Under the pieces are notes generated by a model. That model made no database searches. It was not told the DNA's origin and saw nothing but the letters and a program-made list of their open reading frames with translations. 42,594 nt of DNA from Chlamydiota bacterium (lineage in GTDB: Bacteria > Chlamydiota > Chlamydiia > Chlamydiales > JAJFMA01): contig JAJFMA010000074.1 of assembly GCA_021772415.1 (NCBI GenBank), positions 1 through 42,594 of the forward strand, written 5' to 3'. The position numbers were made by a program, and so were the translations under genes. Positions 941 to 8,858 of this stretch are shown here, piece by piece (position 1 is the first letter of the stretch; each line of letters opens with the position of its first letter).

Positions 941-2089
941 TTAGAACGAGTGCTCGAACATCAGAACGGGAAAGAGCTTGTGTTCACACAGGAGGTCACG
1001 GCCGTGCGACTCCCAGAGACGTTCGTTGTGGTATTTTGCCGCTAGGCCTGCTCCGTTGATACCTCCGAAGTACCACCCTGCTTCTAGGGAGGTGAGGAGT
1101 ATTCCGGAGGCGATATGGCCACGATTAAAGAGTTGGACGGCGGCGATGGTAGTGAGGGTATTGAGGAGAAAGGACGTCATTGCTGTTTTACGCTGTCCGA
1201 CATAGGCATATCCCGCGCCAGGAAGTAACGCGTTGAGTGTTTGCGCCTTACGAGGGGACTTGGCGCAGCAGCAGTAGGCGTCTAAATGTGGCATAAGTGT
1301 TTCACAGTCACGGTGCTCATAGGCGAGCATCTGTGCGTAGCCTACCTCCCCTTCGGTAATTGAGCGAGATAAGTCTAAATCCATCGCTGTCTCTTCGGAG
1401 TGGCGATGAATCAATGCGTGTAGGGCTTCGGCGCGCTCGTATCCGCAGTCTTGGAGGTAGGCGTCATGCAGGAGGATCATCAAGTCGCCGAAGGCGGGGA
1501 ATGTGGGATCTGCTTGGACAAGGTCGCTGCACTCGAACGTTTCGATGGCCTCTTGGTACTTAGCACCTAGGTAGTAGGCGAGCACAATACCATATTGAAT
1601 CTGTAGTTCACGCTCAGAGTGACCTGGAGGCAGCAAAAACAGTGCGCGCTTGTAGCTGGTGATCGCACGGTATAGATCTAAGTCACGCGCAAAGCGCTGG
1701 GCGATACGTAGCTCACGCCCCCATTCCTGCGCTAGCTCCTCGTCGGTAATAGGGGGGAACGGGGAGGGTAGGCACGAAATATGACGCTGCTGCGGCGTGT
1801 AGCGCAGGCACGGCTCAATGATGTAGCTGTTTGGCTGGCATCCCGTGAGAACAAGCACTATTGCGATTAGGCCACATAAGTACCTAGTCGCAATCGCAGC
1901 CCGTGCCCCAGTCGTCGGCGTAGCCTGGGAGGTAGCAGCTGTCCTCGCAGCGCTCGTTGATGCGTGGGAGGTTGAGGAATTCGAGTCCCTCGTCGACCTC
2001 GTATTTCCATCGCGGCTTGCGGCGGTTTGTGTCTTTGTATTGGTTTTGATTGCGCTGAGTGACGGCATCGAAATCCCACTCTGTTTCAA
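941..2089 (-). CDS. Lipoprotein with TPR-like helical repeats and a C-terminal hydrophobic region, immediately downstream of the secretin gene. Maximal ORF coordinates are given; the true start is unresolved.
   Basis: A signal peptide and lipobox, ATRYLCGLIAIVLVLTG/C, sit at codons 67-84 of the maximal ORF. This segment begins exactly where cdsC ends (stop at 1886-1884). The rest is helical and repeat-like (YRAITSYKRALFLL, YGIVLAYYLGAKYQEAIETFE), followed by two hydrophobic stretches near the C-terminus (TAMTSFLLNTLTTIAAVQLF, ASGILLTSLEAGWYFGGINGAGLAA). The only in-frame ATG (2089) lies 206 nt inside cdsC. Confidence 0.75.
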   Translation of the reverse strand: MKQSGISMPSLSAIKTNTKTQTAASRDGNTRSTRDSNSSTSHASTSAARTAATSQATPTTGARAAIATRYLCGLIAIVLVLTGCQPNSYIIEPCLRYTPQQRHISCLPSPFPPITDEELAQEWGRELRIAQRFARDLDLYRAITSYKRALFLLPPGHSERELQIQYGIVLAYYLGAKYQEAIETFECSDLVQADPTFPAFGDLMILLHDAYLQDCGYERAEALHALIHRHSEETAMDLDLSRSITEGEVGYAQMLAYEHRDCETLMPHLDAYCCCAKSPRKAQTLNALLPGAGYAYVGQRKTAMTSFLLNTLTTIAAVQLFNRGHIASGILLTSLEAGWYFGGINGAGLAAKYHNERLWESHGRDLLCEHKLFPVLMFEHSF

Positions 2090-8000: not shown

Positions 8001-8858
8001 GGTGACCGTCAGTATGACATCATGGATCGAGCGGCCAGTGCCGAACTGGCTAGCTTTAGTAGAGCAGATTTGCGAGTCACCAACGCATACGAAATGCGGA
8101 ACTTCGGTGTGTCGGTTTGCGCTATCAGGTATCCATTCGCTGTCACTATAGGCAATTGGTACACTCGGAGGAGTGTAGACGTCGTCTGCTTTTGCCTGGC
8201 ATGCCTGGTCGTGGCTGGCACAGACGAAAGCGGGGATTTTGGCCTTGTCCGAGAAACAGGTAGGGCAGGCGTCCTGGCCCGAATACGATCCTTGAACCCA
8301 AGGAGACTCTTGGTAGCTGTAGTAGGAGTCACAAGATTGGGTGTTTCCACCACACCAGTTGCCGGAGCATAGCGAGGACGCAACAGATGAAACTTTACGC
8401 ACAAACTCGTGCTGGCAAAGAAATAGGTTGCTGCAGGGGCGTACGATGTGTCCTCTGCCAGGAGTAAAGCGGCAGTCTTGGCCGGTAGAACACTGATGAA
8501 CAACGTCTTTTGGAACGTTAAAGCGGTTTTCGGCGCGTTTATTGTCCGCAAACCAGTCGATTTCTTCGCTTTCTTTGGTCGTCCCTTGTGTCTTCTCTAG
8601 CGTCTCAGAAGGTGGGATGATATCGTAGTCGGCGGAAAATGCTTCGTCAAAAAGTTCGGTGCTAAAGGAATTTCCATTGTCTTCGACGGACCAGAAAGCG
8701 TGGGGCTGTGAGCGCAAGTCACCGACGGCAACTTTGTTACCGGGTTGGCCCCACAACAAACCTTGGCTGGCAATCAATACGGGTATTGACCCCCACCATA
8801 GCTTGGCGAGTAGATTACGTGGAGGCTTCTTGTCCTCGTTGAGATCTTTTTCAACCAT
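1884..8858 (-). CDS. sctC: T3SS outer-membrane secretin SctC/CdsC, giant form (2324 aa), with a roughly 1560-aa N-terminal extension
   Basis: The C-terminal ~760 aa show secretin architecture. The N0/N1 region reads FTINFRDVPITEYIRFVSGLTGQNFIF...IHGLSVLEQGNNIIIH. The secretin core reads RQVFLEMLVLDTT...EYRDIGTLLRVRPQI...KVHVPNGFFVILSGMVRE...PCLGGIPIIG...NLMIFIRPQII. The gene follows pkn5 as in Chlamydia (CT673-CT674). The extreme N-terminus has a signal/anchor segment (LLAKLWWGSIPVLIASQGLLWG), which supports translation of the whole 6975-nt frame. Confidence 0.93.
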   Translation of the reverse strand: MVEKDLNEDKKPPRNLLAKLWWGSIPVLIASQGLLWGQPGNKVAVGDLRSQPHAFWSVEDNGNSFSTELFDEAFSADYDIIPPSETLEKTQGTTKESEEIDWFADNKRAENRFNVPKDVVHQCSTGQDCRFTPGRGHIVRPCSNLFLCQHEFVRKVSSVASSLCSGNWCGGNTQSCDSYYSYQESPWVQGSYSGQDACPTCFSDKAKIPAFVCASHDQACQAKADDVYTPPSVPIAYSDSEWIPDSANRHTEVPHFVCVGDSQICSTKASQFGTGRSIHDVILTVTDVAPPVEKHRAPVPPLAYSQDVGTCVGHGCEGKQLANLSLSQMLAHGNGVSETTVLGHDAKALHLTDVPALLCANCDISDTAGGMYADCEPGACKTFETGNYDVMHGLRGFTTVPVAACDGCSISAPSENQAYSLAANEESLYRHSAPEGADAIAMGRTIKLEEATTYASNVDHLDHPLVQDTLVHATQGVKKPADELITAPSPTFGLHLKQRGRCAGECGPSQPMLTPDHPTIARAAFDGTGHDRLEDIQHLSGFGTKTTLTDPGFSSAIEPSHAVVAQAPSTGIDTLAPLVFWGLTQEKAGLHPRRSSTQPSANTSTWQSWDSVIADGLAGEGIINSEPLAINDAPDTASTQIAHSRSSREPWTYFDELIDIEHPSSRHIYTLDTVTTEIPVSEPLVAQASIPEPTVEQAPIAETLATQHATAAVERRRTPTLTERQVKSIAEQALLSGLSNQVTSETDPLKRHYLDYPDHIVASTHSAPGLPPKSMDAAALSAKSENVPTLASDKRNLLAASETLRQDAVPASKSLGQQLAPRETLATSSAPKHVSRDYPVAMHPNSSSSASELVGEAIQPYLTTHPVRGQSHQHASLPPLLQTHSGFINQTPHSSAGNSTKQLAASAQPSVAEPALVDSESAHALGLENPGLAHNANDIADKGIPTHNTRRHKLGQSHNSSDTSLKRASAQLHATTQGNTAATALLTASEESSQLAKSLPHHKAGSEPLRPPVCAERHKDSSYVAGETQKPGFDYSQLKQLTASTQPGDHLKRNSHPAQRLDPSPGMGSQLVTADGVKVPGGLDIPSGHTGVRHNAPAQESTHIVKAVRDGSYHVTPYASPQLNTTNDHLGVSGMVTAPPGTTTSAPWVDEAVNLHGKDAIGLQVRGDDTSRSDLDFQPSLGEAWGVDKRRVPEAQKIEASVDLRDVSLADMADVIARSQERSSIGERDNKYYKVVHVTDKATPKVNVGKATPKKGSGLHRPADDARERFSVEVFPSAPTEELPSMHQLLGRVRRESSNAPDVKMPESFLIGLAHADTFEEVGASSEDSAFYSVGASSRHHHQSSDWDEESRTDSWSSEQQTQAYPDAGLEKPMTLGVRREGFLWSDEGPWLDNPSSEEAVSYSYEESPNSGSPPGYTWSEYSPQSENTETAERELNSSLQKKNRSKSSRYEEEFAEEFEEVLDEGEDYVTSYSEAYFSEAAPSEQADAAAQESGTPGDHTLTAKGQQGLKAGLDPFQSTRDLAPRSNLQVAQETLFESGAPATRREAVVDEVVVEEDEEEEDPGFTINFRDVPITEYIRFVSGLTGQNFIFNEEELDFSITVISDEPTTVDNIMAALLQELRIHGLSVLEQGNNIIIHKSAARSPAKIVTDDIKQDSQTRLITRVFQLDAVDPEKLRAIVEPMLSGQALVQVLPDTKNLLVTDLAGNVEKIADLIKTLDLPATTFEIGQYVGLNNFIENLIPLAEEIVRPIAEGQNLVFVPHLATNSVFVVSSPLLVKRSLAILQRLDALEGQTNIMTLDELSEGGAHLVRQKDDSEFFEEDEDKIKNLTPEEIEEERRLREERDREGSQRDEDDLFDDRDSDRDRDRYADEDRQRYEEPLADDDISQTKFFIHKLRYRKGDQLTDALYRISDSLRLSEKANIDLINAINSIQWIESSNSLVVTGTPESLGRVKELVEEIDTPLRQVFLEMLVLDTTISDSLDYSVEWTSEFSGVNVGGAQGWSGATPLPGQSTPLLGAVDTAASGVTTDSTTGALTQALIDASSLAGASIPGFNLGVIGRRVLKNGNFFNTMGALVRALHTDVEGEVIINPKIIVEDNHEAEIFVGENTAYQTQNTVNDSGEIISQNVEYRDIGTLLRVRPQIGTNNVITLEIEQEVSQDVSASSGGGGGGGGGGGTGVVSNPGPTTKTSRTITKVHVPNGFFVILSGMVREEKQRTRWQLPCLGGIPIIGAANSRRNTTLSKRNLMIFIRPQIIETEWDFDAVTQRNQNQYKDTNRRKPRWKYEVDEGLEFLNLPRINERCEDSCYLPGYADDWGTGCDCD
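2325..2360 (-). repeat. In-frame (GGY)n trinucleotide tract encoding an 11-Gly run inside the secretin domain
   Basis: The plus strand reads ACCACCACCACCGCCACCACCGCCACCGCCACCACT. On the coding strand this gives SSGGGGGGGGGGGTG, in the loop just before TSRTITKVHVPNGFFVILSG. Confidence 0.9.

Follow-up and report, generated by a model that had tools for sequence, protein, structure and literature searches.

The window analysed here is a stretch of 42,594 nucleotides (nt) of contig JAJFMA010000074.1 from a Chlamydiota bacterium (assembly GCA_021772415.1), and it carries a type III secretion system (T3SS) gene cluster that ends in the gene for a giant secretin. This gene is one open reading frame (ORF) at window positions 1884–8858 of the reverse strand, with 2324 codons and a stop, which starts at the first ATG past the upstream in-frame stop. 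The encoded protein is present in identical form in NCBI-derived data as P0121. Its recognisable secretin part comprises the C-terminal ~760 amino acids (aa), and ~1560 aa precede the N0 domain. The original prediction, made from the letters of the window alone, had proposed this anatomy, and the ORF and the Pfam domain boundaries bear it out. The protein is real and very large, but it is neither unique nor an orphan.

The secretin gene closes a cluster of genes that lie on the same strand in the order CdsD with an FHA domain, CT668-like protein, ATPase, YscO-like protein, FliN/CdsQ, Pkn and secretin. Family matches place CdsD, with its FHA and CdsD_PD1, PD2 and C families, at 17732–19573, followed by an HrpB1/TPR protein (16380–16835), a weak match to the CT668 family (15647–16336), the T3SS ATPase (14230–15546), the YscO-like protein (13722–14216), the FliN-type CdsQ (11332–12501) and Pkn, a Ser/Thr kinase fused to a PP2C/SpoIIE phosphatase domain (9728–11293). 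An SseC-like translocator and TPR chaperones are encoded further upstream of the cluster. The same cluster order is repeated in two related loci, L003 and L004. It presumably also matches CT664–CT674 of C. trachomatis, which we take to be a cdsD…cdsN-cdsO-(cdsP)-cdsQ-pkn cluster ending in cdsC.

The 120 best matches to the secretin part share one domain set, and the named ones come from Chlamydiae, Parachlamydiaceae or Protochlamydia. Several of them are labelled 'type III secretion protein C', and some sources use 'type II secretion system protein D'. The window secretin is at most 51–59% identical to any other known secretin. Curated hidden Markov models (HMMs) of secretin subfamilies all scored below their cut-offs: the GspD model TIGR02517 matched end to end with 284.3 bits (cut-off 351.35), the SctC model TIGR02516 with 65.7 bits (cut-off 238.45), the PilQ-type model TIGR02515 with 139.5 (cut-off 284) and PRK15346 with 17.9 bits (cut-off 524). 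The best matches in the PDB were GspD structures (135 bits), compared to 31 bits for InvG and 28 bits for MxiD. These scores and the names of some homologues might suggest a secretin of the type II secretion system (T2SS), GspD, rather than an injectisome component. This is very improbable, however, as even the end-to-end match remains under the curated GspD cut-off, the gene occupies the cdsC position at the end of a T3SS cluster, and no T2SS family was found among the neighbouring genes. Moreover, previous studies have shown that chlamydial T3SS secretins were recruited from T2SS-type secretins and are hence GspD-like (PMC3459982; PMC4682100); the T2SS (GspD)-type core of chlamydial CdsC is already published. 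The earlier designation of the protein as a type III secretin thus appears right, and it is by gene context and nearest homologues, not by the SctC HMM, that the protein is assigned to the chlamydial T3SS secretins CdsC/SctC.

The most plausible reading of the ORF is that it is translated in full, into a single Sec-exported polypeptide of about 250 kDa. Over the 1560 codons of the extension the secretin frame contains 0 stops, whereas the five alternative frames of this DNA have 52–88 stops each. A codon log-likelihood trained on ten Pfam-supported genes of the window, and scored per segment of 100 codons, ranked frame 0 first in all 23 of 23 segments. The codon signal was weaker in the extension, with a log-likelihood ratio (LLR) of about 0 in three segments, as expected for an unusual amino-acid composition. 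The GC content is steady along the gene (about 53% for the organism). At the N-terminus, aa 1–37 (8748–8858) have the features of a Sec signal, with a charged n-region and the h-region LLAKLWWGSIPVLIASQGLLWG, as predicted from sequence features alone; aa 16–35 are the only hydrophobic stretch within the first 1600 residues. The motif LLAKLWWxSxPxLIAxQG is kept at the protein start of the giant relatives P0122–P0125 described below, and the initiator Met falls in the same alignment column as the Met of P0122, P0124 and P0125. The hydrophobic segment read as a signal or anchor in the original prediction is conserved and probably an export signal.

An internal start near N0 was ruled out. No in-frame ATG, GTG or TTG occurs from residue 1375 to 1614, a hydrophobic segment follows none of the possible starts at residues 1212–1374, and the region has no signal peptide. 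Translation from a point near N0 would give a product without an export signal, which could not reach the outer membrane. No obvious Shine-Dalgarno sequence precedes the ATG at 8858. Another ORF, of 141 aa, is found at 8851–9276 (reverse strand) and overlaps the start of the secretin gene by 8 nt. It is probably not a gene, given its negative codon LLR (−11) and the lack of a family match and of a counterpart in relatives. With no stops, a consistent coding-frame ranking and no alternative start or signal, the claim that the frame is translated and exported as a single polypeptide holds. We consider this, taken together with the CdsC identity, very likely.

Secretin core and extension

A Pfam search of the whole 2324-aa protein, in which families were accepted above their cut-offs and the extension was checked to E 0.1, found only three families, all in the C-terminal third: N0, Secretin_N and Secretin, which fill residues 1568–2258. 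The core begins with 'PGFTINFRDV' at aa 1563 (nt ~4172), and runs in the order N0, N1, charged insert, N3, pore domain and Cys-containing tail. The N0 domain spans aa 1568–1637 (3948–4157; PF21305, 43.3 bits), and the Secretin_N (N1) domain spans aa 1664–1723 (3690–3869; PF03958, 66.2 bits over this and a second stretch). A highly charged insert lies between the N-domains at aa 1818–1935 (3054–3407), with 32% D+E, 19% K+R and RDRDRD-type runs. Relatives carry other inserts or N-domain arrays at this position, which is an expansion hot spot in other lineages.

The outer-membrane pore domain follows at aa 2080–2258 (2085–2621; Secretin, PF00263, 122.6 bits). It contains a Gly11 run encoded by a GGT/GGC trinucleotide repeat at nt 2325–2359, with a score of 63 in Tandem Repeats Finder (TRF). 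Relatives have Gly/Ser-rich loops of varying length at this site, and in-frame slippage could alter the length of the loop. The C-terminal tail (aa 2259–2324; 1887–2084), with the motif KPRWKYExDEGLxFLNLPRxNERCE..PGY and four Cys, is conserved, including Cys 2304, in class A, the clade of relatives with giant extensions. It might have a role similar to that of an S-domain.

The extension starts, behind the signal, with a Cys-bearing N-module (aa 38–560; 7179–8747), delimited by BLAST, HMMs and Cys conservation. It carries the motifs FW(S/P), DWFA, RFxVP..C, CxxC (359/362), Cx3C (502/506) and DHPTIARAAFDGT..DIQHLS, and aligns to P0122–P0125 with E 5e-24 to 1e-46. Almost all Cys of the extension (23 of 24) fall in aa 123–506, and Cys 123, 359, 362, 502 and 506 are conserved in relatives. 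A variable hydrophilic middle rich in A/S/T/P/Q follows at aa 561–1000 (5859–7178), as judged from its composition, a gap in the BLAST alignments and a repeat test; more widely, aa 561–1250 are rich in A/S/L/T/P and poor in hydrophobic residues. Within it, aa ~670–880 could not be aligned to any relative by BLAST. The conserved module 2 (aa 1001–1300; 4959–5858), recognised by BLAST high-scoring segment pairs (HSPs) and islands of conservation, contains QKPGFDYSQLKQLTAS, SPGMGSQLVTADGVKVPGGLDIPSGHTG, DHLGVSG and RERFSVEVFP, and aligns to P0122, P0123 and P0124 in HSPs of E 2e-47 to 2e-72. The acidic Ser/Glu zone (aa 1301–1562; 4173–4958), delimited by charge and homology, has 22.5% D+E and a net charge of −41. 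It contains LGVRREGFLWS, LQKKNR, RDLAPR and VAQETLFESG and ends in EEDEEEEDPG. Class A relatives, as well as P0001, P0002, L003 and L005, have homologous sequence in front of N0.

The Cys-rich and acidic zones thus agree with the earlier description of the extension. The middle zone exists as well, but it is compositionally biased rather than low-complexity, as its 40-aa entropy of 3.5–3.8 bits is similar to that of the secretin part. Three tandem repeats of ~10 aa had also been proposed. Such units are found at aa 678–709 (nt 6732–6827), where the peptide repeat score of 5.5 exceeds that of all 100 shuffles (2.2 ± 0.75, maximum 5.0), but the signal is weak and TRF found no repeat there at the DNA level. 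The units are located in the one segment of the extension for which no relative could be aligned.

No AMIN domain or other Pfam family was found in aa 1–1567 at E up to 0.1, and the extension had no match in the PDB with E of 1 or lower; neither database gave a beta-barrel, autotransporter or adhesin domain. AlphaFold2 modelled aa 1–1200 from an alignment of six sequences with a mean predicted local distance difference test (pLDDT) of 29. Low pLDDT was rejected as evidence for disorder, because the N0 domain that served as control also scored low (35–46) and the alignments were too shallow.

Giant relatives and size distribution

An exhaustive HMMER search of 1.84 billion representatives, with aa 1250–2324 as query, retrieved five giant relatives: P0122 (2401 aa), P0123 (2303 aa), P0124 (2758 aa), P0125 (1774 aa) and P0126 (1930 aa). 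Their cores are about 56% identical to that of the window protein. Word-indexed protein searches with the extension alone and with the secretin part had missed all five, and the extension query retrieved only itself; an empty result of such a search should not be taken as absence of relatives. Two independent assemblies, of which one is a 3.9-Mb contig, encode an identical P0124, and P0122 and P0123 were recovered from Logan assemblies of further runs in public archives.

In BLAST, aa 1–551/666 and 883/903–1559 of the window protein align to P0122, P0123 and P0124 with 23–34% identity and E 1e-32 to 2e-72. P0125 aligns over aa 8–551 (E 5e-24) and aa 1248–1543 (E 2e-24), and the extension of P0126 aligns weakly. 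By these alignments, the extension is shown to be homologous over about 80% of its length to the extensions of other giants in a small clade. Islands that recur along the N-terminal part are DWFA, RFxVP..C, CxxC (359/362), Cx3C (502/506), GHPTAAxAAFDGT..DIxHLS and PNYWTVLD. A further set comprises QKPxFDxxQLKQLxAS, SPGPGSQxVTAxGKVPGGLDIxSGHTG, RFxVEVxPH, MGVRREGxLW, LQKKNR and VAQETLFESG. The window protein has all motifs of the class A clade, in the signal, the N-module, module 2 and the acidic zone.

Two further giants have been called as split genes. In L003, the called 'secretin' P0002 is devoid of a signal peptide, and an ORF of 1694 aa that does contain one is located 67 nt upstream. Two 1-nt frame changes at C5 runs (~9890–9965) link the pair into a protein of about 2952 aa that is colinear with P0001, and these frame changes are likely homopolymer errors of long reads. 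In L005, an open frame of 1010 aa precedes P0001 and extends between the contig edge and a 100-N gap (3032–3131) inside a 'PELSHLFDASELSALAS' repeat, which gives at least 2366 aa; the called product P0001 also lacks a signal peptide. Much of the extension in L003, L005 and P0128 is made of ~44-aa 'WVPELLxExC' tandem repeats.

N0 and the pore domain could be placed in 256 of the 257 chlamydial-type secretins that we collected. The extension before N0 varies continuously among these 256, from about 30 to about 2000 aa; the median is 168 aa, the 90th percentile 502 aa and the longest extension 2007 aa. Only 8 of the 256 have at least 1000 aa before N0, and the window protein ranks third. An extension of this length had been called structurally unprecedented. 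This no longer stands, as at least seven other chlamydial-type secretins have 1000–2007 aa before N0, and two more are called as split genes. Similar extensions thus exist in relatives, but they are rare, and in the literature searched we found no paper that describes pre-N0 extensions of 1000–2200 aa. The giants are present in public sequence data, nameless and sometimes mis-called. As most of the window protein's extension is homologous to these proteins, giant size is a trait of a clade and not a one-off.

Outside the training set, an HMM of the N-module (first 200 aa) matched only P0003, P0005, P0006 and P0007, and an HMM of the acidic zone matched only P0001 and P0002. These confined matches indicate that the sequence of the extension is clade-specific. 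A search with a profile of the N-terminal 180 aa gave no match up to E 1e-3 and missed even the members of the profile itself, and scans of genome and metagenome contigs for close relatives gave only distant secretins of other phyla and turned up no second, independent assembly of the organism.

Large size is also reached in other ways. The distance from N0 to the pore is at least 1000 aa in 46 proteins, mostly through tandem Secretin_N-like repeats, and this is the commoner route to gigantism. We observed a second class of giants of up to 2368 aa (P0127, P0130, P0132, P0140, P0219, P0244 and about 40 others), in which a short N-terminus is combined with about 10–22 tandem Secretin_N-like domains between N1 and the pore. 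In P0132 (2368 aa; L009, 968–8074), Secretin_N scores 373 bits over at least 10 stretches. This protein is encoded in the same secretin-lipoprotein-YidD-Der context, which suggests that it is an orthologue of CdsC. These proteins would build an extraordinarily long periplasmic conduit if every repeat formed a ring; no description of them was found in the literature searched. Two further proteins are of yet other types. P0150 (1686 aa) has a Trp-rich repeat insert of ~800 aa (GxWxxDxxGxW) in place of the charged N1–N3 insert, and P0143 (1980 aa) has an unrelated N-terminal extension of 1245 aa with repeated 'CWSxxGDVEEVCQQTY' units.

Role of the extension

In solved secretins the N-terminus is periplasmic, and of the periplasmic domains N0 lies innermost, at the greatest distance from the outer membrane. 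By this topology, the extension would hang from the base of the ring, close to the inner membrane, into the periplasm. It probably serves as a tether or spacer in the periplasm that is largely non-globular and bears Cys in an N-terminal module, and would represent a hypertrophied version, with ~1525 mature residues, of the pre-N0 extension typical of chlamydial CdsC. In a 15-fold ring, as in the closest solved relatives, it would add about 2.5 MDa per machine. A random coil of 1525 residues has a computed radius of gyration of about 15 nm, which is comparable to the 34-nm chlamydial basal body (PMC4682100).

The hydrophilic, fast-evolving middle might serve as a flexible spacer. The conserved Cys N-module and module 2 would then be the business ends, which might link the injectisome to the envelope's protein network with its disulfide cross-links, or else to adjacent protomers. 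Such a role would parallel that of the peptidoglycan-binding AMIN domains ahead of N0 in PilQ. It fits the finding that CdsC is part of the disulfide-cross-linked outer membrane complex of Chlamydia elementary bodies (PMC6752827; PMC13463777). All eight extensions of at least 1000 aa contain 13–29 Cys, compared to none in 116 of 167 ordinary extensions. Across the family, the extensions are poorer in hydrophobic residues (21% vs. 33%) and richer in P/S/T/Q/E/A (55% vs. 36%). The explanation as a whole, from identity and anatomy to topology and tether, seems to us somewhat better than an even bet, while the tether or spacer mechanism in itself is tentative, at less than even odds.

Several observations weigh against this explanation. 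In one relative (L007) the secretin gene is not located beside cdsQ/pkn. The module HMMs matched only the giant clade and its nearest neighbours, and homology to the N-domain of Chlamydiaceae could not be established by them or by the profile search. Cys-richness was rejected as a general trait of chlamydial extensions, given the 116 of 167 that have no Cys, and is confined to the giants and their nearest neighbours. The conserved Cys are mostly CxxC and Cx3C pairs, which possibly form internal disulfides or bind metal rather than form cross-links. AlphaFold2 modelled aa 991–1700 (eight sequences) with a mean pLDDT of only 36, in the same run in which the known N0 scored 35–46. The correctness of the assembly rests on colinearity with relatives, and aa ~670–880 have no support from any homologue. 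Finally, the location of the extension and its function are what we infer from sequence.

Doubts about the assembly raise the question of whether the long frame is an artefact, produced by a chimeric assembly, a wrongly placed start or two fused genes, with the true secretin starting near N0. Two relatives indeed carry a split-gene annotation, three extension segments have a coding LLR near 0, and the start codon has no obvious Shine-Dalgarno sequence. Yet, the short product would have neither a start codon nor a signal peptide near N0 and could not be exported. The junction between extension and N0 (VAQETLFESG…EExEPEG-LINFRDV) is kept in five other intact giants from independent assemblies, the 'split' relatives are accounted for by the frame changes at C5 runs and by the scaffold gap inside a repeat, and GC is steady across the gene. 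The artefact is largely refuted, and we would give it hardly any weight. Neutral bloat is the main rival. Here, the extension would be a fast-evolving, disordered linker whose size does not matter, grown by drift and replication slippage in environmental chlamydiae with large genomes, so that only the signal peptide and the segment next to N0 are important. This would agree with the continuous range of extension lengths in the 256 relatives, the unalignable aa ~670–880, the narrow reach of the module HMMs, the expansion of other parts of the same secretin in other lineages, and the location of P0124 on a 3.9-Mb contig. It is less easily reconciled with islands that are conserved along the whole extension (E down to 1e-72) though the cores are only ~56% identical, with the conserved Cys pairs, with a 4.7-kb stop-free frame kept in several lineages, and with the cost of about 1500 extra residues per ring copy (15 copies if the ring is like solved relatives). 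We therefore regard bloat as unlikely.

An alternative explanation might be that the extension is exposed on the outer face of the outer membrane, either as part of an extra ring around the Chlamydia needle or as an adhesin or sensor of host contact. Surface proteins commonly have long Ser/Thr/Pro-rich, Cys-bearing regions, and the extension shares this character. Nans et al. described a novel ring at the outer membrane's outer face, which they ascribed to 'an additional secretin domain' of CdsC (PMC4682100). However, the extension contains no beta-barrel, autotransporter or adhesin domain that we could find. A segment ahead of N0 would moreover need to cross the outer membrane, given the periplasmic N-terminus of solved secretins. 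Surface exposure thus seems quite improbable, and a periplasmic tether or spacer remains our preferred explanation.

A bolder version of the tether can be imagined. In environmental chlamydiae with large genomes, the ring might carry a multi-megadalton periplasmic 'skirt' (~15 chains of 1000–2200 residues each) that replaces the peptidoglycan sacculus as stator or spacer, with the CxxC/Cx3C N-module disulfide-locked to the envelope network in the infectious stage and freed upon reduction. This scenario is distinctly speculative and we think it unlikely to hold in full. If true, it would imply a redox-switched mechanical coupling between envelope and injectisome and, taken with the N-domain-array giants and their about 20 Secretin_N repeats, would make secretin length the means by which chlamydiae adjust the geometry of their basal body.

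The function of the 'Chlamydia-specific N-domain' of CdsC is a long-standing question, which becomes testable with a clade in which this region has grown six- to nine-fold. The conserved islands and Cys pairs of the enlarged extensions point to the parts that are under selection. The size of the protein is expected to surprise structural biologists of the T3SS, as the size range of T3SS secretins far exceeds the 560–921 aa of the structural literature. The results also indicate that gene callers and assemblies mishandle giant genes, since two of the closest relatives appear in annotations as truncated secretins without a signal peptide. The working principles of the injectisome are unchanged and no new principle is demonstrated, the function of the extension being our inference.

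Neighbouring genes and comparison with known systems

Downstream of the secretin gene, a putative lipoprotein gene with the lipobox LTGC, a weak TPR match and two C-terminal hydrophobic segments lies at 941–1894 (reverse strand) and overlaps the secretin stop. It has no in-frame ATG near the lipobox, and codon LLR puts its start, an ATT, at about nt 1894, which is 8 nt ahead of the secretin stop. A lipoprotein gene is found directly after the secretin gene in eight loci, usually overlapping its 3' end, with 66% mean column identity; it is located at 13653–14642 in L003, 13509–14477 in L004, 7229–8167 in L005, 7320–8315 in L006, 16225–17229 in L007, 8067–9020 in L009 and 7213–8196 in L010. These proteins of ~315–330 aa share a lipobox L-T/V/S/P-G/S-C followed by Q/H-x-N, and a C-terminal region 'LPGAGYxYVGQ…GWYFGGINGAGLAAKEYNE' with two hydrophobic segments; weak TPR matches occur in five of the eight. 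We consider the lipoprotein a candidate for a pilotin or an accessory protein, of the kind represented by the TPR lipoprotein PilF/PilW. This is of interest because, according to Nans et al. (PMC4682100), the T3SS operons of C. trachomatis encode no pilotin.

On the other side of the secretin gene, the intergenic region towards Pkn measures 870 nt, compared to 122–358 nt in relatives. It contains an element of ~220 nt (9340–9558) with a perfect 14-nt inverted repeat, TGAGGCCCGAAGGG, at its ends and a 46-nt imperfect inverted repeat inside. The element may be an insertion resembling a miniature inverted-repeat transposable element or a structured RNA; it has no Rfam match and no other copy in the window, and Rfam gave no match on the window as a whole. 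The fusion of the Pkn kinase to a PP2C/SpoIIE domain is also found at the same position in L003 and L004. Elsewhere in the window, an ankyrin-repeat protein and a 1238-aa leucine-rich-repeat protein are encoded beside large ORFs (785–1371 aa) that have no family match, at 37005–38120 (+), 38773–42489 (−), 32856–36971 (+) and 29716–32073 (−). Ankyrin and leucine-rich-repeat proteins are typical effector candidates of protist-associated chlamydiae.

Among known systems, the SctC-family secretins InvG, YscC and MxiD share with the window protein the secretin pore domain and, as judged from gene context, presumably the role in the machine. They differ in length (560–610 aa; PMC4682100), and their similarity to the window protein amounts to only 28–31 bits; the window protein also fails their models TIGR02516 and PRK15346. 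SctC-family secretins and chlamydial CdsC have separate evolutionary origins (PMC3459982). T2SS GspD/PulD (PDB 5wln, 5zdh, 5wq7), with solved rings of 15 chains, have the same order of N0, N1, N-domains and secretin domain and give the best HMM and PDB similarity. In contrast, the window protein remains below the GspD equivalog cut-off and has a T3SS context, and GspD has no long extension before N0.

PilQ, the secretin of type IV pili, uses AMIN domains before N0 to tether the secretin to the envelope, and Neisseria PilQ also has small basic repeats. It shares with the window protein the presence of extra modules between signal peptide and N0, which offers a functional analogy for the proposed tether. 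The window protein lacks AMIN, however, its partner in the envelope would be a protein network instead of peptidoglycan, and its extension is several times longer.

The closest counterparts of the window protein are the unnamed giants (P0122–P0126, L003, L005), which share its architecture, the signal peptide, the homologous N-module, module 2, the acidic zone and the downstream lipoprotein gene. Their cores are only about 56% identical, and the middle region is not conserved. The best characterised counterpart is CdsC (CT674) of C. trachomatis. Both proteins are encoded at the end of a cluster, after cdsD…cdsN-cdsO-cdsQ-pkn, both have a T2SS-like core, and in both a hydrophilic extension with Cys is located between the signal peptide and N0. 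As the original prediction stated, with a length of roughly 900 aa, CdsC of Chlamydiaceae is itself N-terminally extended; C. trachomatis CdsC has 921 aa, including a unique N-domain of ~250 aa (PMC4682100). The ~1525 mature residues of the extension described here are about six times as many, and sequence homology between the two extensions could not be shown. An N-terminal extension of chlamydial CdsC, the 'Chlamydia-specific N-domain', is already known, and what the window adds is a giant variant of such an extension.

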